Virus record (IMG/VR): IMGVR_UViG_3300017917_004998
Coordinates: 59,064-123,063 of that record
DNA length: 64,000 nucleotides
Source: a virus
Direction: 5' to 3' (one strand)
Shown piece after piece: positions 23,564 through 48,333 of this stretch. Both the position numbers and the translations under genes were made by a program. Below the pieces are notes generated by a model. It searched no databases. It worked only from the letters and a program-made list of their open reading frames with translations, and had not been told where the DNA came from. Within the stretch, counting starts at the first letter, position 1. Every line of letters begins with the position of its first letter.

Positions 23564-23851
23564 ATGGCAAAGACAACTAAGGAATTTTCATTTTTGGATT
23601 TAGACAAGGAACTATCAAAAATTACTGGGTTTGAAACTGGATCGATTTTAGCAGACAACACTTTTAGTGAGGTTGATGAATGGATCCCAACAGGCAACTA
23701 TTTATTGAATGCACAATTATCTGGAACCTTATTTGGTGGGATCCCAAACACAAGATCCCTCGGTTTGATGGGAGATCCAGGGTGTTTACGAAAAACCCAA
23801 AAGGTTAGGGTGTATGTATTAAAAACACAAGGTGAGTCGGATAGGACCTAA
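23564..23851 (+). CDS. uvsX: UvsX/RecA-like recombinase, part 1 (73-aa N-extein plus 22-aa IntN)
   Basis: IPTGNYLLNAQLSG..FGGIP...GDPG ends just before the second half of Walker A, followed by CLRKTQKVRVYV and a stop. Confidence 0.85.
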   Translation: MAKTTKEFSFLDLDKELSKITGFETGSILADNTFSEVDEWIPTGNYLLNAQLSGTLFGGIPNTRSLGLMGDPGCLRKTQKVRVYVLKTQGESDRT

Positions 23852-24369
23852 TTATAATCAAAATAGAAAAGTTAAGGATTAATAAAAATATGATGGATAG
23901 AATTCAAATAATTGAAGAGCTTAAGGCTTACCCAGATTTTTACAGCGATGTTGATCTAGAGAAATTGACAGAATCTGAAATTTCAGAATTGTTCAATAAA
24001 CACTGTGAGGAATTTTCGGAAGAGATTGAGATTGGGACTGTTTTCAATGATATGAAAGCACAAAGAATTCTGGCAGACACCCCAGATGGATGGATCGAAG
24101 TTGGTAAATTCGTAAAAAAGACACCAAGGGATATACACAGAGTTATTCTAAACGATGGATCTTTAGTTGAAGCTTCGTGCGATCACATGTTTGAAACTTC
24201 TAGAGGATGGGTGATGTCTAAAGATCTTCAAGATGAAGAACTTATCTTAACAAAAAACGGGTTCGTTGGGGTTAAGGAAAATGAAATTATAGCAAACGAA
24301 GAAGTTTATGATTGGGAGATCCTACACGAGAATCACCGATACTGGGTTGGTAATATGTCTTCACACAAC
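23783..24369 (+). mobile_element. Atypically split intein 1 in UvsX (IntN 23783-23848, IntC 23890-24369)
   Basis: Cys1 follows GDPG. IntC has TPDGW, block B EASCDHMF, block F VYDWEI and block G SHN followed by Thr(+1). Splicing restores GDPG-TGKS. Confidence 0.85.
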
Positions 24370-25074
24370 ACCGGTAAATCTTTCGTTTGCCTGAACGTTG
24401 CAAGAGAAGCTCAGAAAAAAGGATATGATGTAATCTATTGTGATACCGAGGGAGCGATCGATAAAAGCTCTGCTATTAAATTTGGTATTGATGCTAACAA
24501 GGTAAGATATCAGCCAATCAAGACTGTAACTGAATTCCAGACCTTTGTAGCTAACCTTTTGGAGCTAGTTAAGAAAGCAAAGGCAAACGGAGCTAATCCT
24601 AAGATATTGCTGATTCTGGACTCTTTGGGTATGTTAAGCACTGATAAGGAATTAAGAGATGCGATCGAAGGTAAGAATGCTGCTGACATGGGAGCTAAAG
24701 CTAAGGAATTAAGAAAGTTATTCCGTGTTATCACGTTGGATCTGACTGCTGCTAAGATTCCACTGGTTTGTACGAATCACGTTTACTGTCTTACAGCAGG
24801 TCACAAAATCTTAATGTCCGATGACACATATAAAAACATCGAGGATATTGTAGTTGGTGATGTTGTTAAAACATTGGCCGGCGATAGAAACGTTTGTTCG
24901 ACTTCTGAGTTTGAAGATAAGGAGGTTATTAAATTGACTCTTGAAAACGGTCAAACCATCGAGTGCACTCCCAACCATAAATTTTTGGTTGAAAACGAAT
25001 GGACCAACGAACAATCATGGAAATGCTCCGATGATTTGGTAGAGGGAGATTACATTTTAAGAACCAGCGAATAA
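23890..25074 (+). CDS. uvsX: UvsX part 2: IntC1 + 139-aa middle extein + IntN2
   Basis: SHN|TGKSFVCL..YCDTEG..LDSLG (Walker B)..NHVY|CLTAGH..ECTPNHKF, then a stop. Confidence 0.85.
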   Translation: MMDRIQIIEELKAYPDFYSDVDLEKLTESEISELFNKHCEEFSEEIEIGTVFNDMKAQRILADTPDGWIEVGKFVKKTPRDIHRVILNDGSLVEASCDHMFETSRGWVMSKDLQDEELILTKNGFVGVKENEIIANEEVYDWEILHENHRYWVGNMSSHNTGKSFVCLNVAREAQKKGYDVIYCDTEGAIDKSSAIKFGIDANKVRYQPIKTVTEFQTFVANLLELVKKAKANGANPKILLILDSLGMLSTDKELRDAIEGKNAADMGAKAKELRKLFRVITLDLTAAKIPLVCTNHVYCLTAGHKILMSDDTYKNIEDIVVGDVVKTLAGDRNVCSTSEFEDKEVIKLTLENGQTIECTPNHKFLVENEWTNEQSWKCSDDLVEGDYILRTSE

Positions 25075-25264
25075 TTAAACCGATTGATGTGGTATATGCA
25101 CACAAAAGCATATACCATGTTTTCTGTAGAATAACTAATATAAAATCATGAAAAAAATAAAGATAATCAAAAAAGAAGTACTAGAGGAAAGAAAGAAAGT
25201 TTATGACGTAACTGTAGAGGGAGCACATCATTATTTCCTAGAAAATGGAGTAATCTCTCATAAT
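24787..25264 (+). mobile_element. Conventionally split intein 2 in UvsX (IntN 24787-25071, 95 aa; IntC 25148-25264, 39 aa)
   Basis: CLTAGHKILMSD..KNIEDI.VGD.V and TPNHKF (block B). IntC is VYDVTVEGAHHYFLENGVISHN followed by Thr(+1). Confidence 0.9.
25087..25125 (+). other. Stem-loop between UvsX part 2 and part 3
   Basis: tggtatatgc (25090-25099) and gcatatacca (25108-25117) form a perfect 10-bp stem, followed by gttttct. Confidence 0.6.
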
Positions 25265-25798
25265 ACAGGGAGTGGATATATGCCAACTAAAGAATCTTCA
25301 GGTGGTGACGGACCTATTTTTGCAATGTCTGTAATCTCTTTCCTTTCTAAAGCACAGTTAAAAGAAGGTAATAGCACAACTAAGACTGGTATCGTTGTTA
25401 CATCAAATCTTAAGAAAAGCAGATTCACAATCCCAGAGCCTGTTAAGTTTCACATCTCATTCCTAAACGGTATGAACCCTTATGTTGGTTTGCAAGATTT
25501 CGTTTCTTGGGAAGCTTGCGGAATTGGCAAAGGAAAGTTTGAAGAAGTGAAAAACGAAAGCGGAGTCAAAGAAACTGTCTTTATACCAAGCGAAAGTGCA
25601 CAAGCCAGATGGGCGGTTAAACACTTGGGAAAAACTATTACGTCATCACAGCTATTCACACCTGAAGTTTTCACCGATGAGGTTCTCAGACAACTTGACG
25701 AGAATGTTATTAAGAAGCATTTCATATTGCCAACAATGGGAAACAATGATGAGATTGCAAACGCTTTGGAAGCTGATTTAGAAGATGAACAGGAATAA
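25148..25798 (+). CDS. uvsX: UvsX part 3: IntC2 + 177-aa C-extein
   Basis: SHN|TGSGYMPTKESSGGDG..SVISFLSK..KSRF..GMNPYVGL matches the UvsX C-terminal region. Confidence 0.85.
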   Translation: MKKIKIIKKEVLEERKKVYDVTVEGAHHYFLENGVISHNTGSGYMPTKESSGGDGPIFAMSVISFLSKAQLKEGNSTTKTGIVVTSNLKKSRFTIPEPVKFHISFLNGMNPYVGLQDFVSWEACGIGKGKFEEVKNESGVKETVFIPSESAQARWAVKHLGKTITSSQLFTPEVFTDEVLRQLDENVIKKHFILPTMGNNDEIANALEADLEDEQE

Positions 25799-26081
25799 GA
25801 TCAAGTTTAAGTATCTAATGAATCTGTGGAAGTCCCTTCCTTCATACCCTACCCAGGAAGATGTCATTTTTGAACTGACCTCTTACCTGGAAAAGGATGG
25901 TAGACCAAATGGAGAATTTTCGCTGCAAACCTTTAATTCTATACTAGGTTCTAAATGGATGGAAACCAAACATTATGAACTAGTACAAAATATGATTTCT
26001 TCCGGGCAATTTATTGAAGTGTCTGGGCAAGGAACGAATAAGGTAAAATATAAACTAAAGGAAAAACCAGAATACATTTAA
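25785..26081 (+). CDS. Hypothetical protein
   Basis: ORF packed between uvsX and the helicase with overlapping boundaries. Confidence 0.6.
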   Translation: MNRNKIKFKYLMNLWKSLPSYPTQEDVIFELTSYLEKDGRPNGEFSLQTFNSILGSKWMETKHYELVQNMISSGQFIEVSGQGTNKVKYKLKEKPEYI

Positions 26082-26082
26082 G

Positions 26083-27384
26083 ATGGATTTATCACATTCG
26101 GAGAATATAATTCTAAGATACATTATCACACAGCCTGCCTATCTTGAAACATGCAGAGCGGAATATTTCAAGAATAGTGGATTTCAGGAGGTGTTTGTCA
26201 TGTCTAAGAAGTTCTGGGAGAGATACCATGAAGTACCTACTCCAGACCAGCTCAAGGAAAATGTTAAATTGGAGGGTAAGACAGACAAAGTATCGCCGGG
26301 AGAAATACAAGCGATCTTTGATGTTGATCTTGCAAAATATCAGGATGATTGGCTTACGGAAACGACTGAACTCTTTATTGAATACAAAAATCTTGTAACA
26401 AGTGCTGTAGATGGTGTTAAATATATCCAGGCAACACCAGTCACTTCTGATAACATCAAAGAGGTTATTAACACCTTTAAGAATATTGTTGTTGAGAGAA
26501 ATAATATAGATTTCTCGTTCGATGAGGGCTTGGATTTTTTCCATCCTGATAACCACAAACAGCTTACACACACAACATTCTCTTCTGGCTATCCTTTTAT
26601 TGATACAGTATTGGGTGGAGGTTTTTCTGCCAAGTCACTGTACGTCTTTATGGGGATGCCAAAAGTTGGTAAATCGCTATGGCTTGGTAATCTTGCAGCT
26701 CAAGCAGTAAAGTCAGGACACAACGTAGCAGTTATTTCACTAGAGATGAACGACAGAAAGTATGTCAAGAGGCTAGGTGCAAACCTGCTTGGTATTCCTG
26801 TCAATGAGTATGGCAACACAGCGGAGGATGAACAGAAGATGAAAAAGAAGATCAGTTCTCTTACATATTCAAATCTAAGTGTTCCTGGTAGACTGTTTGT
26901 AAAAGAATTCCCGACTTCTCAAGCTTCTGCTCTTGATGTTGAACGATATCTTAGAAAAGTTGAAGAGCAGAATGGAATTAAATTCAAGGTAGTTGTCATA
27001 GACTACATCAACATCATGAAAAACTGGAGGAATCCAAACTCGGAAAACACCTATATGAAGATTAAACAGCTTGCCGAGGATATTCGCGGTGTGGCGATGC
27101 TTAACGGCTGGGCAATTTTGACTGCAACACAGACTAAGCAAAGCGATTTTGACTCCACAGATCTTAGCATTAACTCGGCAGCAGAATCGTCCGGTCTAGT
27201 TGCAACTGTAGATGGACTTTTCGGAATCATACAGGATCCAATGATGTATGCAAACAGAGAATATAAACTCAAACTGATTGCGAACCGAGACGATGGATAT
27301 AAAAATGCATACAAAATGTTTAATGTAGATTATACATACATGAGGATCATTGAAAACGGAGTTCCGATGCACGCAGAGGGTTAA
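26083..27384 (+). CDS. DnaB-like replicative helicase (T4 gp41-like)
   Basis: GMPKVGKS (Walker A), SLEM, IDYINIM, TATQ, AESSGL and KLIANRD motifs. Confidence 0.9.
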   Translation: MDLSHSENIILRYIITQPAYLETCRAEYFKNSGFQEVFVMSKKFWERYHEVPTPDQLKENVKLEGKTDKVSPGEIQAIFDVDLAKYQDDWLTETTELFIEYKNLVTSAVDGVKYIQATPVTSDNIKEVINTFKNIVVERNNIDFSFDEGLDFFHPDNHKQLTHTTFSSGYPFIDTVLGGGFSAKSLYVFMGMPKVGKSLWLGNLAAQAVKSGHNVAVISLEMNDRKYVKRLGANLLGIPVNEYGNTAEDEQKMKKKISSLTYSNLSVPGRLFVKEFPTSQASALDVERYLRKVEEQNGIKFKVVVIDYINIMKNWRNPNSENTYMKIKQLAEDIRGVAMLNGWAILTATQTKQSDFDSTDLSINSAAESSGLVATVDGLFGIIQDPMMYANREYKLKLIANRDDGYKNAYKMFNVDYTYMRIIENGVPMHAEG

Positions 27385-27400
27385 AAAAAATAACAAAAAA

Positions 27401-27892
27401 ATGGAAGAAGAAATTGACAATAATATCGAAGAGAATGTAGACTCTGGTGGTGAAAAAAAACAGCAACTTGGAGACAAGATCTTTGGTGCACACAACAATC
27501 CAACATCAGACAACGACTTCAGAGAGAACTTTGAACTTGATACGCAGCACAAATTTCTGGAGGATAGCTTTGATGAGGAAGAGTATTTGCATAGAAAAAA
27601 ATTAGAGGAAACTGTTTTTGCAGCATTCCAAAGCTCTAGGTGGTATCCACTGTCTTACAAAAAGAAGATACCAAAAGATCTAATACCTCATTTGTTTCAG
27701 GATGTGCTTGAGAAACTTGAGGACACTGAATTTGGATTCTCTGAGAAATTTGTAGTCATCTGTGATTTTGTTTCCATTCCGTATACGAAGGCGTACGAGC
27801 TAATCCCTGCCAAATACAAGGAAATAATTATTAACGAGCTAGAAATAAAGTTTGGCATTCTTTCGCGTAGAAAGATTAAAAGATTATTTTGA
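27401..27892 (+). CDS. Hypothetical protein
   Basis: ATG 27401 follows an A-rich leader. The protein has an acidic N-terminus. Confidence 0.65.
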   Translation: MEEEIDNNIEENVDSGGEKKQQLGDKIFGAHNNPTSDNDFRENFELDTQHKFLEDSFDEEEYLHRKKLEETVFAAFQSSRWYPLSYKKKIPKDLIPHLFQDVLEKLEDTEFGFSEKFVVICDFVSIPYTKAYELIPAKYKEIIINELEIKFGILSRRKIKRLF

Positions 27893-29010
27893 TGGAATCT
27901 GTTTTTCCTAGCATAAAAAACGAAAAAGCAAAGAGAGTATGGTTAATAACCGATACCCATTTGGGCGTAAAAAATAGCTCAAATGAATGGATAGAAATCA
28001 TCGATACCTATTTCAAGGATTTCTTTTTTCCACTGGTTAAAAAGCACTACAGACCTGGGGATGTTCTTATCCACTTAGGTGATTGGTACGATTCTAGACA
28101 GAGCGTCAATCTAAGAGTATTAAATCTAGGTGTTGAGATTGCAGAGAAGATGTCGCTCACGTTTCCAGATGGCATTTGGATTCTAATCGGCAACCATGAC
28201 ATATTTGGGAAAAACACAAACGATGTGAATTCGTTAAAAAGCATCAAATGGATTCCTTCTATTACAATTTGCGAAGAACCTGCCAGCATCCAATTGGGAG
28301 AAAAGTCATTCTTTATGATGCCATGGAGAAAAGACTCAGAGACCGAAGAGTCCTGCTTGGATAGTGCAGAATACCACGACTATCTTTGTTGTCACTCTGA
28401 TATCAGAGGACTTAAGTTTAACAGGTACGTGAACGTTGAGCACGGCTCAGATTCAACTAAGTTTAGAAAATTTGGCAGGGTTTATTCCGGACACATTCAT
28501 TATGCACAAGAGTCTGGAAATATAAAAATGCTTGGCTCACCTTATGAGCTAACTAGATCTGATATGGACAATCCGAAGGGTATTACTCTTTTGGATTTAG
28601 AAACCGGGCAAGAAACGTTCTTTGAAAATGATATTTCTCCGAAGTTCAAAAGATATCAGTTTGAAGAAATTCTAGAGAAAACCATAGATGATGTCAATTC
28701 AGATTTCGAGAACAACTTTGTTGATATCATGATAGATCCAAGAATGGCTTTAAAGGCACCACTGAACATTCTAACGGACTCTATAGTAAATCCAAGAAAG
28801 ATATCTTTCCATCCCTACGATCCTAATCAGGCTTCTTCGCTAGAGGAAAGAATGAGATCTACCGACGAGAGACAATTCGATGTGCTTGACTTCATCGAGG
28901 AATATGTCTCACAGATGGATCATGACAAGGAAACCAGAGATAGAATACTTTCAACAATCAATAAATTGCATTCAATTGTAATTACACAGGATCAGGACAA
29001 AAAGATATGA
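27889..29010 (+). CDS. Recombination nuclease subunit (T4 gp47/SbcD/Mre11-like)
   Basis: Phosphoesterase motifs TDTHLG, HLGDWYD, GNHD, CHSD and SGHIH, GSPYE. Confidence 0.9.
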   Translation: MMESVFPSIKNEKAKRVWLITDTHLGVKNSSNEWIEIIDTYFKDFFFPLVKKHYRPGDVLIHLGDWYDSRQSVNLRVLNLGVEIAEKMSLTFPDGIWILIGNHDIFGKNTNDVNSLKSIKWIPSITICEEPASIQLGEKSFFMMPWRKDSETEESCLDSAEYHDYLCCHSDIRGLKFNRYVNVEHGSDSTKFRKFGRVYSGHIHYAQESGNIKMLGSPYELTRSDMDNPKGITLLDLETGQETFFENDISPKFKRYQFEEILEKTIDDVNSDFENNFVDIMIDPRMALKAPLNILTDSIVNPRKISFHPYDPNQASSLEERMRSTDERQFDVLDFIEEYVSQMDHDKETRDRILSTINKLHSIVITQDQDKKI

Positions 29011-29201
29011 AAATAACAAAAATTGAGTGGAGAAATTTTTCCTCTTACGGAAACAGAACCCAGGAATTAAATCTGGGTAATGAATCAAGTCTATTTCAGA
29101 TAAACGGAGAAAATGGTACGGGTAAGTGTCTTTATCCCGATACAATTCTAAAAGTTAAGGTATCCAAAGAAACTTTAGCCAAAATAAACAACTTACGTTA
29201 A
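29007..29201 (+). CDS. gp46/SbcC/Rad50-like ATPase part 1 (40-aa N-extein plus 24-aa IntN)
   Basis: MKITKIEWRNFSSYG...INGENGTGK|CLYPDTILKVKV, then TAA. Confidence 0.85.
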   Translation: MKITKIEWRNFSSYGNRTQELNLGNESSLFQINGENGTGKCLYPDTILKVKVSKETLAKINNLR

Positions 29202-29624
29202 CCACTTCAGGGAACACCAATATACTTAGAATTTTTTAAGAACTGACAAATGGAGGAAATTGAAATCACTATTAAGGATCTGCATGATTTTTTAACACTA
29301 CACCCAGAAGAGAAGGGAAATATTTTAATCGAAGGAAAGGATGGATGGTGCGAGATTGATGAATCTGCAATCACTGCTCCAGATTCAGTTTTTTACACTA
29401 TTCGAACTGAGAATGGAAAGGAAGCAAAGTGTTCTCCTGATCACCAGTTCTATAATGACACCTGGATTAAATGTAAATACCTAAATGTTGGCTATCCAAT
29501 TCTAACCGATCTTGGATATTCTAAAATAACACATCTGGAGTTAGAAAAAGAAAAAGCAGACCTTTATGATATTGAAGTGAGAGATTCCCACAATTATTAT
29601 GGAAATGGAATACTCTCCCACAAC
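29127..29624 (+). mobile_element. Atypically split intein in gp46 (IntN 29127-29198, IntC 29250-29624)
   Basis: Cys1 follows GTGK. IntC has KCSPDHQF, LYDIEV and SHN followed by Ser(+1). Two in-frame stops (TAA 29199, TGA 29244) separate the halves. Confidence 0.88.
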
Positions 29625-31169
29625 TCATCCATCTCGCATGCTATTTCGTATGGCCTATATGGAAAGGTTGAAGGAAAAAAACTAAAAGATATACCAAACA
29701 GGATCAATGGTAATGCCTGGGTAAGAATAACACTAGATCATCTGGGATCTTCCGTTGTAATAGAAAGAGGAATAGATCCGAATCTTTTCAGGCTTTTTAT
29801 CGATGGCAAGGAGTTTGATCAAGCAGGAAGCAGATCACTCCAGGATTATCTTACTGATGATATTCTCGGTATTCCATATTACGTGTTCAACAACACGATA
29901 TCTCTTTCCATCAACGACTTCAAGAGCTTTATTAAAATGACACCTCAGGATAAAAGAGGAATCATAGATAAAATATTCGGATTCCACATCCTGAATCAGA
30001 TGAGGGAGATCCTTAAATCCGAGACCAAGAAGATAAAGGAATCACTTGATACACTTTCAGGGAAACTTATTTCACTAGACAGCTCAATCAAGAGCTCTTC
30101 AGCCGAAATGGAATCCCTAATTAATGAAATAGAGGAGGAATCTGTAGCCCTAATCGAAGATCTTACATCTAAGATTACAACATTCGAAAATCTACAAACA
30201 CTCCACAATCAGAAGATGTCTGAATTCAGAATCGGAGAAAGTGAGCTAAATCAGAAAACCAGAAACACCAATTCTCTTTTGATAAATGCGCAGTCCAAAT
30301 TGAGAGATCTGGAGAGAAAGCTAAAACTTTATGATCAGAACATTTGTCCGACTTGTGAGGGATCCCTGGAAACCGATTTTCACGCCAATATGAAATCGTC
30401 TATGTTATCTGAAAAAAAATCTATTGATGACAACATAGCAGAGATAGAGAAAACGCTAGGAGAACTTAGAATTCTCGAATTAAATTGCGTTACAACCAGA
30501 AACGAACTTGTTGAAAAGGGAATGAAAATAAAGAATAAGCTTGATTCAATCCATCAAGAATTAAAGCTTCTAAAATCTAAAAAGGGAGACAAACAGGCAC
30601 AGTCTTTACAAAGAATCATAGATTCTCTTACTTCAGATCAGGAAAATACAATCTCGATCAAATTCAAAGAGGAAGAAAAACACAATTGGCTTAAAACTAT
30701 CGACGAAATACTTGGCGAGAAGGGTGTTAAACAGATGGCGATTAGAACCATTCTACCTTCTCTAAATTCAGAAATTCTAGAGCTTCTGAGAAAGATGAAT
30801 CTAAGCTACCAGGTAGTTTTTGACGAGGAATTTAATGCCATGATATATCAGATGGGAATTGAGGTTCCGTCGCAGACATTAAGCACTGGTGAAATGAAAA
30901 AAATAGATTTCGTTGTTCTGGTTGCGATTATGAAGCTTATGAAGCTTAAATTTAGCTCGATAAATCTTCTTTTCCTCGATGAGCTTTTCAGCTCTGTTGA
31001 TCCAGAAGGTGTTCATTCGATCCTTGGGATTCTCAAAAATTCCTGCTCTGAACTTGGACTAAATATATTCGTCATTAATCACGCACCTATGCCACATGAG
31101 ATATTTGATTGGAAAATAGATGTTCAGAAAAAGAACAACTTCTCGTCTTTTACACTCGAGAAAATTTAA
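29250..31169 (+). CDS. gp46-like ATPase part 2 (IntC + C-extein)
   Basis: After SHN come SSISHAISYGLYGK, a coiled coil, the zinc hook CPTC, signature LSTGE and Walker B LFLDELF. Confidence 0.9.
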   Translation: MEEIEITIKDLHDFLTLHPEEKGNILIEGKDGWCEIDESAITAPDSVFYTIRTENGKEAKCSPDHQFYNDTWIKCKYLNVGYPILTDLGYSKITHLELEKEKADLYDIEVRDSHNYYGNGILSHNSSISHAISYGLYGKVEGKKLKDIPNRINGNAWVRITLDHLGSSVVIERGIDPNLFRLFIDGKEFDQAGSRSLQDYLTDDILGIPYYVFNNTISLSINDFKSFIKMTPQDKRGIIDKIFGFHILNQMREILKSETKKIKESLDTLSGKLISLDSSIKSSSAEMESLINEIEEESVALIEDLTSKITTFENLQTLHNQKMSEFRIGESELNQKTRNTNSLLINAQSKLRDLERKLKLYDQNICPTCEGSLETDFHANMKSSMLSEKKSIDDNIAEIEKTLGELRILELNCVTTRNELVEKGMKIKNKLDSIHQELKLLKSKKGDKQAQSLQRIIDSLTSDQENTISIKFKEEEKHNWLKTIDEILGEKGVKQMAIRTILPSLNSEILELLRKMNLSYQVVFDEEFNAMIYQMGIEVPSQTLSTGEMKKIDFVVLVAIMKLMKLKFSSINLLFLDELFSSVDPEGVHSILGILKNSCSELGLNIFVINHAPMPHEIFDWKIDVQKKNNFSSFTLEKI

Positions 31170-31221
31170 CCATCATAAGCGAACAGCTACTCTGGATATA
31201 TAAAAGAAATATCCAGAGGGT

Positions 31222-32100
31222 TTGAAACCGTTACCAAAGCTTAGTAGACAGAAGAACTTGCAGATCAATAGGGTAAACCTTAATGATAAGGGTTTGCCTG
31301 GAGTTGCTTCAACCTTGATAGTTCCAGAAACACAAGGACTGGGTTTACTTGGAATCGGCAAGCTTGCTCCTCTGCCGGTTAAGGTTCCTGGCTATGATCC
31401 AGTTGTAAACGATAAAAACAAACCTGTAATTTCAACCAGAACTATATTAACTTATTCTTATCTGTTTGTACAGTATGAAAATACATACATACCTGCAGGT
31501 GACGAAAAATTGTACTCTTTTGCAGTAATACTTCCTTTGCAGCCGATGACGGTCAACGAATGTGCATCACAGCTTGGGGTTTTAGCAAAAAACGTCACAG
31601 GACTGACATTAGATCAATATCAAACTGGAACCTTTCAGCATCCTGTTTACACTAATCAAAACAACACACCTTTGGTTTTAAGGTATTCTGAACTTCCTGT
31701 TGTTCCGCAAACAACACCAGGTAGACTCGATAACGTTCCTCTTGGCTATCCGAATTTCATCTATCAGAAATCTCCAATCACCACCCAACAAGGACCTATA
31801 CCTTCCCCACCACTCCCTGATTTTATTACGAGCAGAGGAAATACTGGAGCGACAGCAATCAATGTTGGCGGAACAGTAGGATTTATCGATGCATCGGTAA
31901 GGAATCCGTATTCATGGAGACCCACTGCTTGGTCTTGGGATTTTGGTGGAACAGGAGCCAGTGCAGGTGCAACCGGATTAACTGCAGAAAATCCAATAGT
32001 TCTTTTCTTGTCTACTGGAACGTACACAGTTACTCTAACAGCAAGTAACGCATACGGTTCTGCAAGCATCACAAAAAATAGCTTTGTTACTGTCACATAA
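31222..32100 (+). CDS. Virion structural protein with C-terminal PKD domain
   Basis: VGFIDAS..PTAWSWDFG...NPIV.F...GTYTVTLTASN PKD motif. GATATATA lies at 31195-31202. Confidence 0.7.
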   Translation: MKPLPKLSRQKNLQINRVNLNDKGLPGVASTLIVPETQGLGLLGIGKLAPLPVKVPGYDPVVNDKNKPVISTRTILTYSYLFVQYENTYIPAGDEKLYSFAVILPLQPMTVNECASQLGVLAKNVTGLTLDQYQTGTFQHPVYTNQNNTPLVLRYSELPVVPQTTPGRLDNVPLGYPNFIYQKSPITTQQGPIPSPPLPDFITSRGNTGATAINVGGTVGFIDASVRNPYSWRPTAWSWDFGGTGASAGATGLTAENPIVLFLSTGTYTVTLTASNAYGSASITKNSFVTVT

Positions 32101-32103
32101 TTT

Positions 32104-32850: not shown

Positions 32851-32926
32851 TCCTGCAATTGGCTTACAAGCAGATTTTGGTTTTCGGCTATCGATATATA
32901 GTTGAAAGAAATCCTGATTTTTTGCT

Positions 32927-33241: not shown

Positions 33242-33244
33242 GAT

Positions 33245-38805: not shown

Positions 38806-38883
38806 GTGCTCAACCGGATAATTCTAAAATTTGCATCAGTACTAGGAATATTTCGGTACTGATGCTATATAAAGAACTAAACT

Positions 38884-39156
38884 ATGGAAAAGAACGTAAC
38901 ACTAACTAAAGAAGAGATGGATAGCATTATCCAACTTAGAGGTGAGATCAGAGAAAATACTGCTGAGTCTGGCCGTTTAAACATCCAAAAACATTTCATT
39001 CAGGCAGAATTGGATGTGATCAATTTGAGATTGTCTGAAGTTTACAAAAATGCGGAACATCTCGATGCAAGAGAAAAGGAAAAGATCGATGAGATTGTTG
39101 CAAAATACGGAGAAGGCCAATTGGATTTCGCTACCGGGATCTACCAGGTTAACTAA
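38884..39156 (+). CDS. Small coiled-coil protein
   Basis: ORF ending KYGEGQLDFATG, preceded by a TATATA box. Confidence 0.65.
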   Translation: MEKNVTLTKEEMDSIIQLRGEIRENTAESGRLNIQKHFIQAELDVINLRLSEVYKNAEHLDAREKEKIDEIVAKYGEGQLDFATGIYQVN

Positions 39157-39161
39157 TCAAT

Positions 39162-40229: not shown

Positions 40230-41391
40230 TGTTTATCTTGACGTAAAGAAAAACGATCTCGTTAAGTTTGACCGACCTTTGAAGTTCAAGTTTACCTTCG
40301 ATTACTTTCCAAAAGTTGACACTACAGGAAACGATAAAAGAAAAAGAGCGACAATCAAATTCAAGGATAAAATAAGCTCTGCGTACACGTACTCTGGTGA
40401 AACATCACCTGGTCTCTACACTTCGCTTTACAGAAAATGGTATACCCCATGGGTTGCTGAAGCCTATGAAGAAGATCAAAAAATATGGGAGCATGATTTC
40501 GAGGAAGGCCTATACGAATCTAAGATATGTGTTTCCATCGATAGTAAATCCTTGGGGGATACACTAGCATGGCTTCCCGTAATAGACCTGTTTAGAGAGA
40601 AGTTCAATACTAAACTTTACGTAACCTCTTTTTGGAATCCACTAGTTTCTGCAATGTTTCCTAAAATAGCATTTCAGCCTCCGGGATACAGAGATCCAAG
40701 CACGTATGCAACATTTGGGGTTGGCTGGTATGAAGAAAAAGACAGAAATGTACACAGAAGAGATCCAAGATCTGTTTCATTGCAACAGGTCGCTGGAGAT
40801 ATACTAGGAATCAATATAGACACAGACGTTCTGCCACCAAACATTCCACAGCATGTTTTAAATTCAGAACCAACAATCTCAGGAAAATATGTTTGTATAG
40901 CAACACAATCAACAGCAAACGCAAAGCATTGGCATTTTCCTGGTGGATGGCAAACGATAGTCGATTATCTCAATACGATAGGTTATAAGGTTGTCATCAT
41001 ACAGGAACAGCCAAATACACTAGATAATGTAATCGACAAATCTGGCAGCATCGACATCATGGAAAGAGCAGTAGATATCTACCATGCAGATTTTTTGATC
41101 GGACTCGGTTCTGGCCTTTCTTGGCTTGCCTGGGCATTAAAAAAACCAGTTGTTATGATCTCTGGTTTCTCTCTGCCCCATTGCGAGTTTACAGAAAAAA
41201 ACTATCGTGTCATAAACCAGTCTGTCTGCCACGGATGCTTCAATGATTCAGCACATAAATTTGACAAGGGCAATTGGAACTGGTGCCCTAGACTGGAAGG
41301 AACCAATAGAGCGTTCGAATGCTCCACCGCAATCACGCCTCAGATGGTTATAGATAAAATACAGGATCTGATCTCAACCGAAGTCCTTTAA
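40207..41391 (+). CDS. Second Aah/TibC-like heptosyltransferase
   Basis: SKSLGDTLAW, YVCIATQSTANAKHW, IGLGSGLSWLAW and CHGCFN..WCP..FEC motifs. Confidence 0.78.
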   Translation: MMKSRGISVYLDVKKNDLVKFDRPLKFKFTFDYFPKVDTTGNDKRKRATIKFKDKISSAYTYSGETSPGLYTSLYRKWYTPWVAEAYEEDQKIWEHDFEEGLYESKICVSIDSKSLGDTLAWLPVIDLFREKFNTKLYVTSFWNPLVSAMFPKIAFQPPGYRDPSTYATFGVGWYEEKDRNVHRRDPRSVSLQQVAGDILGINIDTDVLPPNIPQHVLNSEPTISGKYVCIATQSTANAKHWHFPGGWQTIVDYLNTIGYKVVIIQEQPNTLDNVIDKSGSIDIMERAVDIYHADFLIGLGSGLSWLAWALKKPVVMISGFSLPHCEFTEKNYRVINQSVCHGCFNDSAHKFDKGNWNWCPRLEGTNRAFECSTAITPQMVIDKIQDLISTEVL

Positions 41392-41464
41392 TCCCGCCGG
41401 GAGAAGTTGTTTTAGATATATAAGTCAAAAGAACACAGTTCTTAGCACATACATCTAAAACGAC

Positions 41465-44011
41465 ATGGCTATTCCACCAAACAAAGCACCCTTCGAGGGC
41501 CTTCCTGTTTATAACGGGAACGGACAACAGAGGAATCTATCCGATCCAAGATACAGGTATCAGGACGACATTCCGAATACGTCCAAGGTAATCGATTCAA
41601 GTACTAATAATCTTTATAGTACTTCTGAAGCTGCACTAGCAAGAGCTATCCAAATCGGATGCAATGGCTATCACACAATACTCGCTTCTGACGGTGTTTA
41701 CTACTATGCTCCTTGCGAAAACGAGGGATGGCTTGTACAGAGACTGGAGCAGCTGGACAGTGCTCTCAATTTCACGTACATAGGAAATTATAGAGTACTC
41801 ACGTACGATTCGCCATTCAGATACGCCAGTTCTTTCAATGGCTGGATTATAGATACAAATGGTGCAGTAAATAACTACCCGATCGATCTCGATAGCGTTG
41901 CTAACGCAACATACTCAAACGACATTGCAATCGATTTCAGATATAGCGTAGACGGAAATAGCTGGTCACTCTGGACAAATGTAGGAACAGCCCTCACTGG
42001 ATTCAACCCATCCAAAACATCGAACGAGAGGGCAGAGATATTTTCCATCCCCCTAGATCCAGAAAAGCCTTTTTATCCAGAATTTAGATTCACATCAGTA
42101 ATCATAAATCCAGATGGCAGCATAGCTTACCAAAGTGATGAACCAATAGATCCAAATGTCGTGATCGTTGACTTTGGTCTAGATCTAACCTATGACACAA
42201 ACATCCCAGGTGGTCCAGATAGTACAATCATCAGACAACCTATACCAAAGTGCTCTCCAGAAAAATCAAACAGACCAGTCGTTTTCAATGATTGCGGACC
42301 ATTAACATTCAACCCATACAACATCAACAAAGCACTAAATCTATATCAAGATCTAAGTCTTATCGTCAATAAAATGTTTGGGTTTGAAACAAATTATTAT
42401 TCAGTACAACCGCAGTCTAGATCAAAAGATGTTGTTCTAAAGGAATGGACACTCTTCGATGTTGTTGAAGAGCAGTGCGTGAAAGTAATGGTGCCACAGA
42501 ACCAATTCCCAGACAACAAAGTCAACTATGATTCATTTGGGATAAATTTTGAAGAGCCCTTCGAGATCCAAATCGATAAAGTGTACTTCGAAAGCATCTT
42601 CGGCAAAGGTTCTCAGCCCAGAAAAAGAGACATCATCTATTTTCCTTTAACCAACAGAATCTATGAAATCAATTCAACCTATCTATTCAGGGATTTCATG
42701 TATTCTCCGGTTTACTTCAAAATCGAGCTTAAGAAATACAATCCGAAATCAAACACTTACTTCAGAGATCCTGCTTATAAGGAAGAGCTTGACGGAATTG
42801 CTATAACATCTCAGGAGTTATTTGGCGCTCAGACCAGAGATCAGGAAATCCAGATCACAAAACCACAACAGTACGCAACTTCTACAAACGACAGAGGAAC
42901 AGATCCTACACGAACCTACGTCTACGAGAATCTACCAATCGTTGGCTACGATCTGAACAACAACTGGACAATCGTCTTCAACAACTACTACGATCTAAAC
43001 GATGCATTCATAACCAACAGCGAATTTCCTTTCGAACCAAACCAATACAGAAACGGTGTAGTCTACGCAAATCTGCCAAAGCTTGAAGCGGACGGAGAGA
43101 TCTCGTACACCTGCTGGTTTGGCATGAAGAACTACGTCAATGAATCAAGTCTAACCAAGAAACCGTTCTCACCTGCCCCAATAGTTAAAGAAGCAGAAAC
43201 TCCAACCAGAATAGTTTACAATTCTTATCCCTATAAGCACGGACTAAGTGCTTGGCAAGGCTTCTCTGACAACCCGAACGGGTACGTTGCAATCCAATCC
43301 GACATCAACCACAGCGGTGGATTCGAGGTGACATCTGTTATCGACGATTACAGATTCTCCGTTGCAAATCCAAATCTTCCATATTCGCTAAATAGTCAGA
43401 CACTTAAAATGCAGAAAGCACAGGCTAGAAACCTGATCTCTGGTTATTACATAGACTCTAGCGGAAATAGAAAAGGTCTAAGAATAGATCTGATTCATTC
43501 TGGAGTTCAGGAACCAGGCAACACAAACTTTATCCAGCAGGGAAGCATCGAAGTCAGACTGAACGATCTTGTTTACAATTCAAGACTTGAGTTTGTGCCA
43601 GAATACGGAGAATGGTACGGTGTAGTCGTCAACATCTCCAATAAGTACAAACAAATGGGTATCAACTTCTGGAAGCTTTCATACGATCCAAACAATCCAC
43701 AAGAGCAATCTAGCAATCTGATAAAGGTTCAGGAATCGTACCGCACTCTCACGCAGACATATACCTTTGATCTGCCTGCTGATATAGAAACCAATCCTCT
43801 AAACCCGCTCTACGGAACAGACAACAATTCTTATCGAATCTACACATCGCCAATCCTGCTAAGCAATATTAGAATATTCAAGCAAATGATAGATATAGAT
43901 AAGCAATCAATAGTTCTAAACCAAAATATAGTAAGAGACTCACAGTTAGCCCATATTATCGATAACGCCAAGCCCACACTTGCTGTACCGAAAATATCTA
44001 GAAAAGGCTAA
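41465..44011 (+). CDS. Large virion protein containing a T4 gp14-like neck/head-closure domain
   Basis: Central QPRKRDIIYFPLTNRIYEIN resembles gp14 and is flanked by beta-rich domains. GATATATA lies at 41415-41422. Confidence 0.55.
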   Translation: MAIPPNKAPFEGLPVYNGNGQQRNLSDPRYRYQDDIPNTSKVIDSSTNNLYSTSEAALARAIQIGCNGYHTILASDGVYYYAPCENEGWLVQRLEQLDSALNFTYIGNYRVLTYDSPFRYASSFNGWIIDTNGAVNNYPIDLDSVANATYSNDIAIDFRYSVDGNSWSLWTNVGTALTGFNPSKTSNERAEIFSIPLDPEKPFYPEFRFTSVIINPDGSIAYQSDEPIDPNVVIVDFGLDLTYDTNIPGGPDSTIIRQPIPKCSPEKSNRPVVFNDCGPLTFNPYNINKALNLYQDLSLIVNKMFGFETNYYSVQPQSRSKDVVLKEWTLFDVVEEQCVKVMVPQNQFPDNKVNYDSFGINFEEPFEIQIDKVYFESIFGKGSQPRKRDIIYFPLTNRIYEINSTYLFRDFMYSPVYFKIELKKYNPKSNTYFRDPAYKEELDGIAITSQELFGAQTRDQEIQITKPQQYATSTNDRGTDPTRTYVYENLPIVGYDLNNNWTIVFNNYYDLNDAFITNSEFPFEPNQYRNGVVYANLPKLEADGEISYTCWFGMKNYVNESSLTKKPFSPAPIVKEAETPTRIVYNSYPYKHGLSAWQGFSDNPNGYVAIQSDINHSGGFEVTSVIDDYRFSVANPNLPYSLNSQTLKMQKAQARNLISGYYIDSSGNRKGLRIDLIHSGVQEPGNTNFIQQGSIEVRLNDLVYNSRLEFVPEYGEWYGVVVNISNKYKQMGINFWKLSYDPNNPQEQSSNLIKVQESYRTLTQTYTFDLPADIETNPLNPLYGTDNNSYRIYTSPILLSNIRIFKQMIDIDKQSIVLNQNIVRDSQLAHIIDNAKPTLAVPKISRKG

Positions 44012-44027
44012 CCATTAAATCAAATAT

Positions 44028-44801
44028 ATGGCAAGAAGCAAACCAAAACCAGAAAAGATAGTACAGGAGCAGATCAAGGCTTCTCTAGACTCAATTCTAC
44101 TCGATGAGATGCTGGATATAGAATCAGTAAGGCCTCACGAATTACCTAGGATGAAGACCACAGATGTCATGAATTTTACTGAGGTCACCCAATCAACGGG
44201 AACCGATGCAAAATCCCTGATGGATTCTATAGTTAAGTTCTATCTGGACGAAAATCTCATCGACCAAACATCCTACGTCGATTACAAGAAAAAGATAGAT
44301 TCGATGAACATCTCGTCGATGATGCTACAGCTAAAAACAGCTCAGCATGCTATCACAAAGTTGCTTGAAGAGATAGATCTCGGGATGGCAAATCCAAGGA
44401 TGTTCGAGGTCCTAGCACAGCTGCAGTCGCAAATCATGCAGATGCCTAAAGACTATCAGAACTACATGGAAAAGATGGAGGAAAGCTACAAAAGAATAGG
44501 CAAGGAAATGGAGTCTAAAACCAATTCCGGTGCGATAGCTTTAGATTCCCCTAGTGGAGATGTTTACTCTGGTGTCAAACCTGGTGTGACCGAATCTGGT
44601 GGGATCAAAGTCAGAGGCACAAAAAGTCTCATGGAGGGTTTAAGAGACATTCTGGGTGCTGAGATCGAAGATATCAAACCGATCGAAGAGAACGAAAATT
44701 CTGTGGTGAACGCGAAGAAGAAAACTGAGATTGATGCTTCTAGAAACGTTTTAATACAGGATGATGATAAGCTAGAGATTGACGAGGACCTATTCTTATG
44801 A
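44028..44801 (+). CDS. Hypothetical protein, candidate terminase small subunit
   Basis: Helical ORF directly upstream of, and overlapping, the terminase. The assignment rests on position only. Confidence 0.4.
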   Translation: MARSKPKPEKIVQEQIKASLDSILLDEMLDIESVRPHELPRMKTTDVMNFTEVTQSTGTDAKSLMDSIVKFYLDENLIDQTSYVDYKKKIDSMNISSMMLQLKTAQHAITKLLEEIDLGMANPRMFEVLAQLQSQIMQMPKDYQNYMEKMEESYKRIGKEMESKTNSGAIALDSPSGDVYSGVKPGVTESGGIKVRGTKSLMEGLRDILGAEIEDIKPIEENENSVVNAKKKTEIDASRNVLIQDDDKLEIDEDLFL

Positions 44802-45289
44802 GTGTAGAAATAGAAGAAGGACTGATAGACTCCAATTATTGGTCCACGAAAAGAGTCGAAGAATTACTTTGGAGAGTCGAAGAAGAAGGTCTGGATTACA
44901 AATCTGTAGACAACCCTTTCCATGATGGCGATCCTGAACTGAAGAGAAGTAATCTCTTATGGGAATATACCAATGACGAATTACTGGAAATGCAAAAGTG
45001 TGCGAAAGATGTAATCTATTTCGCTAAATATTGCAGGGTAATGACTGACGACGGATTGGTCTATGTGAAGCTTAGAGACTACCAGCAATCTGTGTTAAGA
45101 GAGTATCAGGTAAACCGCTTTAATGTTTTTTTGGCCCCGCGACAGGTGGGCAAATGTCTCTTACCCACAACTTATATAGTAGATAAAAACAATAAAAAGG
45201 TTTCTATAAAGTCCTTAAAAAAACAAAAAAACAAAGATATTTATTCATTTGTGAAATCTTTTTTGTATAAGCTATACAATTTCTTGTAA
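44798..45289 (+). CDS. terL: Large terminase (gp17) part 1 (119-aa N-extein plus 44-aa IntN)
   Basis: KCAKDVIYFAKYC..LRDYQ..RFNVFLAPRQVGK|CLLPTTYI, then a stop. Confidence 0.88.
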   Translation: MSVEIEEGLIDSNYWSTKRVEELLWRVEEEGLDYKSVDNPFHDGDPELKRSNLLWEYTNDELLEMQKCAKDVIYFAKYCRVMTDDGLVYVKLRDYQQSVLREYQVNRFNVFLAPRQVGKCLLPTTYIVDKNNKKVSIKSLKKQKNKDIYSFVKSFLYKLYNFL

Positions 45290-46884
45290 CGTCTGCCATA
45301 GTGTCAGATACATACATAGACTATATAAAATAGATTAAAAATGAAACAAAGAGAAAAAAAAGAATTTTTGTGTAAAAATTGTGGAACAAACTACACCTCT
45401 AGCTCAATGAACAGCCAATTCTGTACAATTGACTGCAGGAAAGAATTTAAGGTAAAAGACGGGAAAGAACCAGATAAAGATTATGTGATCTGTAAAATCT
45501 GCAGCAGGGCAACATCAAACGTTACTGGTGTGCACCTTAGAAACCATCCGGGCTGGACAGCTGAGAGATACAAAAAAGAATTCCCAGGAATTCCTGTTAT
45601 AGCTTCTAACGTGCTTGAAAGAATAACAGAGGGCTCTAAAAAAGCAGGTGCACTAATGAGCGAGCCACACCATAGAGAAAGACAAAGCAAGATGATGCTT
45701 GGAGAAAAAAACCCAATGCACAAATCGAATACCACTGACGAAGAAAGAAGATCAGTGTCTCCGTTTTCTCCAGATTTCTACCTCAAAAAATTTCCCAATA
45801 TTACCCAGGAAGAAGCAGAAGCCATGGCTAAAGATAAGCTTTCAGAAAACGCAATCATCTCGTGGGTTAAAAAAGAATATTGGATGAATAAGGGCTACAC
45901 TGAGGAGGAAGCAATCAAAATTATTTCAAAAAAGCAGGCGACATTTTCTTTGGAGAAGTGCATCGAGAAATACGGAAAGCAAGAGGGGATTAAAAAATGG
46001 GAGGAAAGACAAAAGAAATGGAAGTATAAAGTCTTTAATGATACAACCCACATCTCAAGAGGATATTCTAAAATTAGCGAAGAATTCATAGGTTCTTTGC
46101 TTGATGTTTTAAATAAAATGGGCTATCCCAATTCTGACATCCTACATGGTAAAAATGAAAAATTCATCAGGACTAAAGAAGGTAATGTTTATAAATATGA
46201 TTTGGTTTTTTCTAATCTAAAGAAAATAATCGAATTTAATGGGGATTTTTGGCATGCAAACCCAAATTTGTTTGAATCAAATTATCTAAATAAGCCAAAA
46301 AATATGACCGCAAAAGAGATATGGGAATATGATGCGGAAAAGAAAAAAACAGCAGAGTCTCACGGATATACAGTTTTTACTTTGTGGGAGGGAGACTATA
46401 GACAAGATAAAACAATGGCAATTAAAAAGTGCCTAGATTACTTACTGATATGAGAGTAAAACTTAAAAAATTAATACTAAGATTAATCTCCCTGATAGAA
46501 AGATTTGAATTCAGGCATCTGGATCTTGACCAGAACGATCACAACAAAAAAATCATAAATGAATCAGACATCGATGTTCAGGTTCTGTCTGATACTGGAT
46601 TTGTTAAAGCTTATAAATATCTAGAAACTCAGCCCTATGACGTTTGGTTTCTAGAACTGGAAAATGGTGATTTTATAGACTGCGCAGACATTCACATTGT
46701 ATATGACCAGGATCTGAACGAAGTCCTCGTCAAAGACCTTCAAATAGGAGATCTTGTGATAACATCAAAAGGTACGAGCAAAGTAAAGTTCTTAGAGAAT
46801 ACCGGTATCCCAGTTTCGATGGTCGATTTATCGATAGATCATCCAAATCACAGATATTACACAAACGATATACTTTCTCACAAC
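45155..46884 (+). mobile_element. Split intein in TerL (IntN 45155-45286, IntC 46450-46884) with an intervening endonuclease gene
   Basis: Cys1 follows RQVGK. IntC has SDTGF, DCADIHI, MVDLSI and SHN followed by Ser(+1). Splicing restores Walker A RQVGK-S. Confidence 0.88.
45341..46453 (+). CDS. Free-standing homing endonuclease, Vsr-like/PD-(D/E)XK with Zn-finger and NUMOD3-like DNA-binding modules
   Basis: CKNC..CTIDC, CKIC..HLRNH, RQSKMMLGEKNPM and YDLVFSNLKKIIEFNGDFWH motifs. Confidence 0.8.
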   Translation: MKQREKKEFLCKNCGTNYTSSSMNSQFCTIDCRKEFKVKDGKEPDKDYVICKICSRATSNVTGVHLRNHPGWTAERYKKEFPGIPVIASNVLERITEGSKKAGALMSEPHHRERQSKMMLGEKNPMHKSNTTDEERRSVSPFSPDFYLKKFPNITQEEAEAMAKDKLSENAIISWVKKEYWMNKGYTEEEAIKIISKKQATFSLEKCIEKYGKQEGIKKWEERQKKWKYKVFNDTTHISRGYSKISEEFIGSLLDVLNKMGYPNSDILHGKNEKFIRTKEGNVYKYDLVFSNLKKIIEFNGDFWHANPNLFESNYLNKPKNMTAKEIWEYDAEKKKTAESHGYTVFTLWEGDYRQDKTMAIKKCLDYLLI

Positions 46885-48333
46885 AGTATCACGTCTGCGA
46901 TTATTCTTGTTTGGTATCTGCTTTTCAACCACGATAAAAATGCTATGATCCTAGCAAACGTTGGTTCTACTGCGGAAGAATTGATGGACAAGATCAAAGC
47001 GATAGTGAAAGGCCTTCCGTGGTTTTTGAAACCCGGAATTATTGTGAATAACGTTATGTCAATGAAATTTGACAATGGCTGCAGGGCAATTGCTAAAACG
47101 ACAACCAAAACATCAGCGATTGGTTTTACCATCCACTTTTTGTATATGGATGAGTTTGCACACATCCATCCCAATTTTATTGAAAGCTTTTTTAGATCTA
47201 CGTATCCGACAGTTTCCTCGTCAAAGGTTTCCCGTATTATCATAACCTCGACACCCAACGGAATGAACAAATTCCATGACATCTACCAGGATGCAGTCAC
47301 AGGAGAAAACAGTTTTAACCCGATTAGAGTTGACTGGTGGCAGGTTCCTGGCAGGGATGACGAATGGAAAAAAGAGGAGATTGCCAACCTGGGCAGTGAG
47401 GAATTGTTCAATCAGGAATACGGAAACCAATTCTTAAGTTCTTCCACGTTGCTATTGGGATCTAACGAGCTCAAAAAAATTAAAAGCAACGAGGCAGAGT
47501 ATGTGTGGCGTGAGATTGATGCTCTTGGAGATGCCGGGGTCAAGTACGAAAATCTGAGATGGCATCCGAAATTTTCACCGGACGGCAGGGATCTTGATTT
47601 AATGTCCAAATCATTTGTGCTGTCTGTAGACCTTGCTGGTGGTAGCAAAGGTGACTATACAGTCCTGAACATTTTCAAAATAATCCCGTTGCCAAGAAAG
47701 ATCATAGAAGCTATGGACGATTTCTCTGACGAGGCAGATTTTTTCGGTCTTCTTCAGGTTGGAATCTTCAGAGACAATGAGATCCAGATTGAGGACTTTA
47801 AAAAATTCCTTGAGATCCTGGTAACTAAATTCTTCGACAAAGAGAAGATAAAAATTCTGCTGGAGGTCAATTTCAAGGGTGATCTTCTTCTGGACAAGCT
47901 TACACTAAACGACAACATCCCACCTGAGGTCTTTTTGTACACTAAACACACTGAATCTGCAAGAACCGCTAAACCAGGTATTAAGTACAACGAGAAAAAC
48001 AAGGAAAAATACTGTGAGATGCTTAGAATCCTGACTAGATCTAACAGGATCATTCTGAATGAAAAATTGTGGACAATCCCAGAGCTTTTCTCATTTGGTC
48101 TTACTGGAAAGGGAACTTATGCTAGTCAATCCGGACACGATGATGTTGCGATGACTGTTGTTAATCTGTCTGCATTATTTGAAGGCAATGCCTTTTTTGA
48201 CCTGATCAGCGAAATATACGATCAGCTTGATGAGTCTTACAGAGAATTAATTGAAAGCAAACTTGATGATAGCGACGAAGAAGGCGGTACCAAAGAGGGA
48301 GGTTTCTATGGTTCGTTCAGTAAACTCCTTTAA
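46450..48333 (+). CDS. terL: Large terminase part 2 (IntC + C-extein)
   Basis: After SHN come Walker B LYMDEFAH, IITSTPNG, FNQEY, LSVDLAGG and GHDDVAM. ATG 46450 overlaps the endonuclease TGA. Confidence 0.9.
   Translation: MRVKLKKLILRLISLIERFEFRHLDLDQNDHNKKIINESDIDVQVLSDTGFVKAYKYLETQPYDVWFLELENGDFIDCADIHIVYDQDLNEVLVKDLQIGDLVITSKGTSKVKFLENTGIPVSMVDLSIDHPNHRYYTNDILSHNSITSAIILVWYLLFNHDKNAMILANVGSTAEELMDKIKAIVKGLPWFLKPGIIVNNVMSMKFDNGCRAIAKTTTKTSAIGFTIHFLYMDEFAHIHPNFIESFFRSTYPTVSSSKVSRIIITSTPNGMNKFHDIYQDAVTGENSFNPIRVDWWQVPGRDDEWKKEEIANLGSEELFNQEYGNQFLSSSTLLLGSNELKKIKSNEAEYVWREIDALGDAGVKYENLRWHPKFSPDGRDLDLMSKSFVLSVDLAGGSKGDYTVLNIFKIIPLPRKIIEAMDDFSDEADFFGLLQVGIFRDNEIQIEDFKKFLEILVTKFFDKEKIKILLEVNFKGDLLLDKLTLNDNIPPEVFLYTKHTESARTAKPGIKYNEKNKEKYCEMLRILTRSNRIILNEKLWTIPELFSFGLTGKGTYASQSGHDDVAMTVVNLSALFEGNAFFDLISEIYDQLDESYRELIESKLDDSDEEGGTKEGGFYGSFSKLL

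Follow-up and report, generated by a model that had tools for sequence, protein, structure and literature searches.

Four naturally split inteins in the UvsX, gp46 and large terminase genes of an uncultured T4-like phage, probably selfish fractured genes

The final 64 kb of the 123,063-bp IMG/VR virus record IMGVR_UViG_3300017917_004998 (64,000 nucleotides, positions 59,064 to 123,063; hereafter the window, numbered from its own first letter) carry a T4-like gene module in which the recombinase UvsX is encoded by three ORFs (open reading frames), and the SbcC/Rad50-like protein gp46 and the large terminase subunit TerL by two each, all seven pieces lying on the + strand. At each break sits an intein divided between the two flanking genes. 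From the sequences of the window and its relatives (the latter cited by our own P, L and G labels), we conclude that these are four naturally split class 1 inteins, their halves placed on separate genes with their own start and stop codons and recurrent in independent genomes. We consider it very probable that the four loci are selfish 'fractured genes' of the type described by Dassa et al. in 2009, repaired by protein trans-splicing.

The first piece of UvsX, UvsX-N (23564..23851), matches the UvsX-like PHROG 97 and consists of a 73-aa N-extein (23564-23782) ending in GDPG, followed by the 22-aa N-terminal half (IntN) of the first intein, UvsX-1 (23783-23848), and a stop codon. The middle piece, UvsX-M (23890..25074; Pfam PF14890, PT-HINT and RecA), joins the 160-aa C-terminal half (IntC) of UvsX-1 (23890-24369) to the 139-aa RecA core (24370-24786) and to the 95-aa IntN of a second intein, UvsX-2 (24787-25071), which begins CLTAGH. 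UvsX-C (25148..25798; Pfam PF14890, positions 122-155) opens with the 39-aa UvsX-2 IntC (25148-25264), which ends in ISHN, and its C-extein begins TGSG. In gp46-N (29007..29201; PHROG match), whose start codon overlaps the stop of gp47 (ATGA), a 40-aa extein ending in GENGTGK precedes a 24-aa IntN (29127-29198), and gp46-C (29250..31169; Pfam PF14890 and the SbcC Walker B) starts with a 125-aa IntC (29250-29624) that ends in LSHN before a C-extein beginning SSIS. TerL-N (44798..45289; PHROG terminase large subunit) carries a 119-aa extein ending in PRQVGK and a 44-aa IntN (45155-45286) with a conserved hydrophobic helix as its tail; TerL-C (46450..48333; Pfam Terminase_6N) carries a 145-aa IntC (46450-46884) ending in LSHN and a C-extein beginning SITS. 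Extein identities (UvsX, SbcC-like, TerL) were assigned by PHROGs. With a slash for each splice junction, the inteins are thus bounded by GDPG/C and SSHN/TGKS (UvsX-1), NHVY/C and ISHN/TGSG (UvsX-2), GTGK/C and LSHN/SSIS (gp46), and RQVGK/C and LSHN/SITS (TerL). Where a preliminary description of this DNA had counted eight fragments, there are seven polypeptides bearing eight intein halves. That description had also passed over a free-standing 370-aa gene for a putative Vsr-like homing endonuclease between the TerL halves (45341..46453, + strand), the stop of which overlaps the TerL-C start (ATGA, 46450-46453). The halves at the other three sites are separated by 38 nt (UvsX-1), 73 nt (UvsX-2) and 48 nt (gp46), with no endonuclease gene. 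Reading frames differ between the halves at three sites; the gp46 halves share a frame and are separated by two stops (TAA and TGA).

Several lines of evidence identify these elements as inteins. Aligned with contiguous relatives, all four possess Cys1, the block B His, block F, the terminal SHN and a +1 residue that is Thr in UvsX-1 and UvsX-2 and Ser in gp46 and TerL; block B reads SCDH in UvsX-1, TPNH in UvsX-2, SPDH in gp46 and ADIH in TerL. The Pfam family Intein_splicing (PF14890) matches UvsX-M, UvsX-C and gp46-C. The TerL IntC has no Pfam intein match, yet among solved structures it matches VidaL (E = 1e-4) and gp41-1 (E = 8e-4), and each of the three long IntC pieces has VidaL (6vgv) as its best relative of known structure (E = 6e-8 for UvsX-1, 4e-7 for gp46). 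Consistently, an AlphaFold2 (AF2) model of the contiguous TerL allele of L008 (predicted local distance difference test, pLDDT, 90.5) retrieved inteins as its top Foldseek matches, with VidaL first (E = 3e-9), so that the HINT fold is confirmed at the level of a modelled relative. ORFs, motifs and Pfam and Protein Data Bank (PDB) matches therefore bear out the four split inteins with Cys1, His-Asn ends and Thr or Ser at +1 first noted in this DNA.

The insertion sites were read from intein-less alleles of all three genes in the related contigs G001 and G002, in which the corresponding segments are GDPGTGKS, NHVYTGGG, GENGAGKSSIS and PRQVGKSITS. Because these relatives read uninterrupted there, excision where predicted would yield exact native proteins. 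UvsX-1, gp46 and TerL are inserted inside the Walker A motif, as had been proposed. The broader proposal that all four inteins lie in ATPase motifs holds for these three only, since UvsX-2 lies outside, at a point two residues beyond the NH conserved in the RecA core. We take the His of this NH to be T4 UvsX His195, the allosteric-switch residue. In addition, every six-frame ORF of the 123-kb contig was searched, with filters off, using a hidden Markov model (HMM) built from eight inteins; this recovered the known pieces only, the next match having E = 0.5. The earlier statement that no contiguous intein is present is thus sustained for the contig, which at about 52% completeness (CheckV) is as far as it extends.

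We surveyed relatives for split and contiguous alleles, as had been suggested, and all four sites show both. For UvsX, the survey covered the 120 best 90%-identity clusters, 81 of which lack an intein, and in many of these the core is 90-95% identical to that of the window. Split inteins occur at site 1 only in 16 of the 120 clusters, at site 2 only in 6-8, and at both sites, as in the window, in a further 6-8 with 45-80% identity; overall, 26 clusters are split at site 1 and about 15 at site 2. The IntC-core-IntN architecture of UvsX-M recurs in P0002-P0006, P0028, L121, L124 and L125. Contiguous inteins are found at site 1 in P0012 and P0030 and at site 2 in P0011, P0024 and P0026, and P0037 and P0112 have a third UvsX intein site, after GGG. 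For gp46, there are 18 clusters of split homologues, each of 633-643 aa with the IntC starting at residue 1. A filter-free search over 1.84 billion representatives gave 615 proteins at E <= 1e-3, and among the best 150 hits, 70 matches were full-length, 53 of them beginning within the first 8 residues (split) and 17 lying internally (contiguous), nearly all continuing into the Rad50/SbcC sequence SxxxDAIxFALFGK. A contiguous allele at the gp46 site is present in L127. The TerL IntC has more than 200 homologue clusters and is N-terminal in nearly all of them, while among the 80 closest TerL loci about 66 have no interruption; L008 carries a contiguous intein with the same total length as in the window (189 aa), and L013 a split one with a 46-nt gap and no endonuclease. 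The related records G004-G006 have 4-9 Intein_splicing matches each, which makes the heavy intein load, judged by sequence matches, a trait of the lineage. The excess of split over contiguous alleles at these sites, together with the several inteins per related record, agrees with the lineage-wide tendency to fracture inteins raised in the preliminary description.

Cultured phages carry equivalents as well, from which we deduce that the layout is viable: in PA5oct, gp276, gp275 and gp274 comprise a 17-aa IntN, an endonuclease gene and then the IntC, and Salmonella phage CF-SP2, a Gelderlandvirus, is annotated uvsX_2 / ORF / uvsX_1. Two side observations concern the wider distribution of these elements. 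G005 and G006 show further intein matches in other genes, among them a 600-aa ORF (G006:76347-76757) and split-looking pairs (G006:55548/56906 and G005:90076/91206). Compared with L014, the TerL locus of the window is more similar in the IntC (74%) than in the C-extein (68%), and compared with L007 the order is reversed (72% and 80%); this identity pattern hints that the TerL cassette moved between TerL backgrounds.

The endonuclease genes place these alleles in a series. The ORF that separates the TerL halves has conserved counterparts in L007, L009, L010/L011, L014 and L017, and in L012 judging from gap length, which makes seven IMG/VR loci in all. A single-sequence search of the PDB with the endonuclease gave nothing useful, and Vsr was reached by profile only: a six-sequence profile of the family matches Vsr (1cw0/1vsr, E = 0.009), aligned across the catalytic D...FWH...D columns. 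Three of the six members match Pfam Vsr (E = 0.01) and NUMOD3 (E = 5.5e-5), five match MTES_1575, a restriction endonuclease family, and DUF559 is also matched. Homologues of this gene (E = 1e-15 to 1e-22) lie between the UvsX-1 halves in L120/L122, L121/L123, L124 and L125, and PA5oct gp275, at the same position, has a C-terminal FWH core that was seen by reading the sequence, not by search. At the UvsX-2 site, an HNH gene separates the halves in L121 and a 99-aa remnant does so in L125; at the gp46 site, G005 has a full Vsr-like gene, and G004 and G006 have a 126-aa remnant. Endonuclease genes thus occur at the sites that lack them in the window in relatives that include L120-L125, L121, L132 and PA5oct. 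All four sites accordingly present the same series in relatives, from a contiguous intein, through a split intein with an endonuclease gene, to a split intein with a remnant of that gene or none; the window shows the endonuclease-bearing stage at TerL and the endonuclease-less stage at UvsX-1, UvsX-2 and gp46. Separately, an extra free-standing Vsr-like gene lies just downstream of uvsX in G005, outside any intein (L122, reverse complement, 8961-10223); it is 41% identical to that of the window over the C-terminal half.

On the reading that we favour, class 1 inteins would first have been inserted at conserved sites, namely the Walker A motifs of UvsX, gp46 and TerL and the UvsX strand that follows the conserved NH. 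Free-standing homing endonuclease genes would then have landed inside each intein, cutting it into two genes, and would later have been lost at UvsX-1, UvsX-2 and gp46 and kept at TerL only. The halves would pair up, a short basic IntN with an acidic IntC in the three early-split inteins and with opposite polarity in the canonical UvsX-2. Once paired, they would fold into the HINT domain and ligate the exteins by a peptide bond, yielding GDPGTGKS, NHVYTG, GENGTGKS and PRQVGKS; the middle piece of UvsX, joined on both sides, would be a natural three-piece ligation.

We next asked how selection has acted on the split alleles, comparing the TerL loci of the window, L007 and L014, for which synonymous sites are saturated (synonymous divergence, pS, 0.6-0.96). 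Under that saturation, the ratio of non-synonymous to synonymous change (dN/dS) was 0.07-0.14 for the TerL IntC and 0.28-0.39 for the TerL IntN, and the endonuclease gene between them had a non-synonymous divergence (pN) of about 0.2 against a saturated pS of 0.8. For the gp46 and UvsX intein halves, the conservation of catalytic motifs was checked at the protein level only. These comparisons indicate that the split alleles are long-standing, frequent and maintained by purifying selection, as far as the TerL ratios can be extended to the set. The preliminary description had allowed that relatives with intact alleles might expose the breaks as recent inactivating mutations. Contiguous and intein-less alleles do exist, yet the splits are ancient, widespread and under purifying selection, and hence the breaks are not such mutations. 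Trans-splicing would be the most economical route to these essential proteins.

Some observations weigh against this interpretation or narrow it. The Thr of the TxxH motif is replaced in three of the inteins, by Ala in TerL and by Ser in UvsX-1 and gp46. Trans-splicing of these sequences is predicted from their genes as most likely, and the contig covers about half the genome. That the elements are maintained by selfish persistence rather than by regulation is our interpretation, with which a secondary regulatory use may be compatible. Finally, the allele series may run in either direction, from contiguous to split or by re-fusion after loss of the endonuclease gene.

The alternative that survives best is that the inteins have been exapted as a checkpoint, in which Cys1-dependent trans-splicing, responsive to redox state, metals or temperature, holds the recombination, end-processing and packaging ATPases inactive; the preliminary description had raised a regulatory role of this kind as one of two possibilities, and we regard it as improbable. 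All four inteins do use Cys1, three of the sites split the P-loop, such that, from the motif positions, unspliced fragments cannot form an ATP site, and conditional splicing of P-loop ATPase inteins has been proposed in the literature (PMC4760082; PMC11766414). However, a preference for P-loops is general among selfish inteins (PMC4760082), these inteins travel with homing endonuclease genes, and their sequences showed nothing diagnostic of a sensor. UvsX proteins with a 90-95% identical core have no intein, and G001 and G002 are intein-less at all three genes, which argues that the inteins are dispensable mobile elements.

Less probable still is a non-covalent assembly in which the intein halves merely dock the fragments and the enzymes act as unligated complexes. 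A fragmented phage NrdA is reported to work in this manner (PMC3045599), and the helices at the TerL split site and the helical domain of the UvsX-1 IntC, described below, could be docking modules. Such a role is difficult to reconcile with the conservation of all splicing catalytic residues across diverged homologues, with the low likelihood that a P-loop holding an intein of 150-190 aa binds ATP, and with the closest relatives, VidaL and gp41-1, being proven splicers according to the literature. We rejected as barely credible the notion that errors of assembly or sequencing produced the breaks, or that contiguous inteins were recently pseudogenised by mutation. Contiguous alleles are indeed known at all four sites, but the frames differ at three of them and the gp46 halves are parted by both TAA and TGA; many independent contigs, at 42-86% identity, share this split architecture; purifying selection acts on IntN and IntC; and a tailed phage cannot do without TerL.

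In UvsX-1 and gp46 the break falls right after the first 12-14 residues, judging from the contiguous alleles of P0012 and L127, and gp46 IntC residue 3 aligns with VidaL residue 23. By homology in the strand assignment, both are S1-type atypical splits, placed directly after the second beta strand. The shared early split position, basic IntN and acidic IntC that had been ascribed to this pair are upheld by the gp46/VidaL alignment, the contiguous alleles and the charges. The UvsX-1 IntC opens with a helical domain of about 40 aa (roughly its first 42 residues, 23890-24015; AF2 pLDDT 83-90), with predicted helices at 4-12, 15-18, 28-42 and 48-54 ahead of the HINT core. This domain is conserved in split and contiguous alleles of the subfamily, with His38 invariant, and is absent from VidaL and PA5oct. 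In TerL, residue 44 marks the break, which falls within the turn of a helix-turn-helix (helices 28-42 and 47-64) inserted after the first helix, as placed by the L008 model; in that model, strands 7-10 and 15-17, helix 18-21 and also the extra helix 28-42 precede the break, so that it does not directly follow helix 1. All relatives keep the motifs xLYKxYxxL in the IntN tail and KKxILRxISLIE in the IntC head, and the IntN length is likewise conserved among homologues. The tail (45236-45286) and head (46450-46510) form amphipathic helices that are packed as a hairpin in the contiguous relative, and they resemble each other to the extent that MAFFT aligns one to the other.

These features bear on whether the halves could find their proper partners. 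Pairwise identity among the four inteins is 24-33%, and the three early-split inteins share a polarity (IntN +3 to +8, IntC -9 to -19) that is reversed in UvsX-2. Given this shared polarity, charge by itself cannot tell UvsX-1 and gp46 apart. Where a genome has both, their IntN signatures read C-[LV]-x-K-[TN]-[QE]-[KR]-[VI] and C-L-[YD]-[PK]-[DES]-T, respectively, and the two sets of halves may plausibly discriminate; from their co-residence in one cell, it is reasonable to suppose that the set may be orthogonal. Tentatively, and with less confidence than we place in the fractured-gene origin, we suggest that the UvsX-1 helical domain and the divided TerL helix-turn-helix may act as natural clamps of affinity and specificity, by which three early-split inteins and a canonical one could operate side by side with no UvsX/gp46/TerL chimeras. 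Were this so, the phage would hold a set of inteins made orthogonal by natural selection, among them a three-piece ligation cassette ready for use.

Comparison with known systems shows that the loci follow the known fractured-gene arrangement and involve no new principle. Dassa et al. (PMC2677866) described eight host enzyme types with free-standing Vsr-like or GIY-YIG endonucleases, and the present loci share with theirs the order of host N-terminus plus IntN, endonuclease gene, and IntC plus host C-terminus, as well as the phage setting, terminase among the hosts and, probably, the Vsr-like endonuclease family. They differ in that UvsX figures in that paper solely as a neighbouring gene and gp46 is absent (PMC2677866), and in that three of the four loci in the window have no endonuclease gene and three are split near the intein N-terminus. 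Among solved structures, VidaL, an atypically split intein (PDB 6vgv/6vgw, cited via PMC13014065), comes closest to all three inteins with a short IntN, of which UvsX-1 and gp46 resemble it in being split right after the second strand (S1). Since the construct that was crystallised terminates in ...SH(A) SGK, the remainder of a Walker A, and the PA5oct UvsX IntC matches VidaL with E = 5e-37, UvsX-1 occupies VidaL's own insertion site. Identity to the inteins of the window is low, however (26% when the TerL relative was aligned by Foldseek), UvsX-1 has a 22-aa IntN and opens its IntC with the extra helical domain, about 40 aa long, that VidaL and PA5oct are without, and gp46 and TerL are other host proteins. 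AceL-TerL, GOS-TerL and Cat (PMC11766414; PMC13014065) share with the TerL intein of the window the host protein and a short IntN (25-37 aa there, 44 aa here), and their S2 type of split, behind the first helix, is one to which the split here may belong; the window intein differs in its +1 Ser in place of Cys, its site inside Walker A and its added helix-turn-helix with the break in the turn. Similarity in sequence is weak; Cat (6dsl) gives no sequence match to it and ranks only 46th by fold. UvsX-2 has the canonical layout of gp41-1, NrdJ-1 and IMPDH-1, with an acidic IntN of about 95 aa and a basic 39-aa IntC; its host site differs from theirs, and it is about 25-30% identical to the other inteins of the window. 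Lastly, UvsX-M has the layout of the donor in engineered tandem trans-splicing, or protein transposition (PMC11185735), in which an insert stands between the IntC of one intein and the IntN of another, atypical on the N side and canonical on the C side, with the difference that UvsX-M is natural and an allele of several diverged phages, those listed above. In the limited literature searched, we found no paper on a split intein in gp46/SbcC/Rad50 or on a natural three-piece UvsX.

The value of these loci lies in the fact that one lineage of uncultured T4-like phages displays the fractured-gene cycle in full at four sites, with alleles that have no intein, a contiguous one, or a split one holding an endonuclease gene, a remnant of it or neither, such that the origin of early-split inteins can be read directly. 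The endonuclease gene would land in the loop after strand 2, or in a helical hairpin inserted after helix 1, and not where endonuclease domains classically sit. Protein engineers value split inteins with a short IntN, of which few are available, and the locus adds three, along with a gp46/Rad50 Walker A intein family of at least 50 diverged clusters and a natural IntC-cargo-IntN cassette, UvsX-M, of a kind now built by hand.

The genes concerned stand on the + strand in the order UvsX, a 98-aa ORF, a gp41-type helicase, gp47 (SbcD-like), gp46 (SbcC-like), a 257-aa ORF, TerL and the tail sheath. The 257-aa ORF is a candidate for the small terminase by position, as it occupies the place of that gene in T4. 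The gp41-type replicative helicase (26083-27384) carries no interruption in the window, although phage split inteins (gp41-1 to gp41-8) classically reside in this gene. Within the 73 nt that separate UvsX-M from UvsX-C lies a hairpin with a perfect 14-bp stem (25086..25121; RNA fold -19.5 kcal/mol, z = -4.1) followed by UUUUCU, which may be a terminator-like signal, a processing signal or a leftover of the hairpins upstream of endonuclease genes described by Dassa et al. in 2009. No counterpart was found in the corresponding gap of L124, folding gave no significant RNA structure in the other gaps of the window, and scans of 23300-31300 for sigma-70 promoters and terminators yielded matches at shuffle level only. 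The tail sheath (48436-51966) is unusually long at 1176 aa, and matches of residues 393-496 to families of virion structural and head-closure proteins suggest that it contains an inserted domain.

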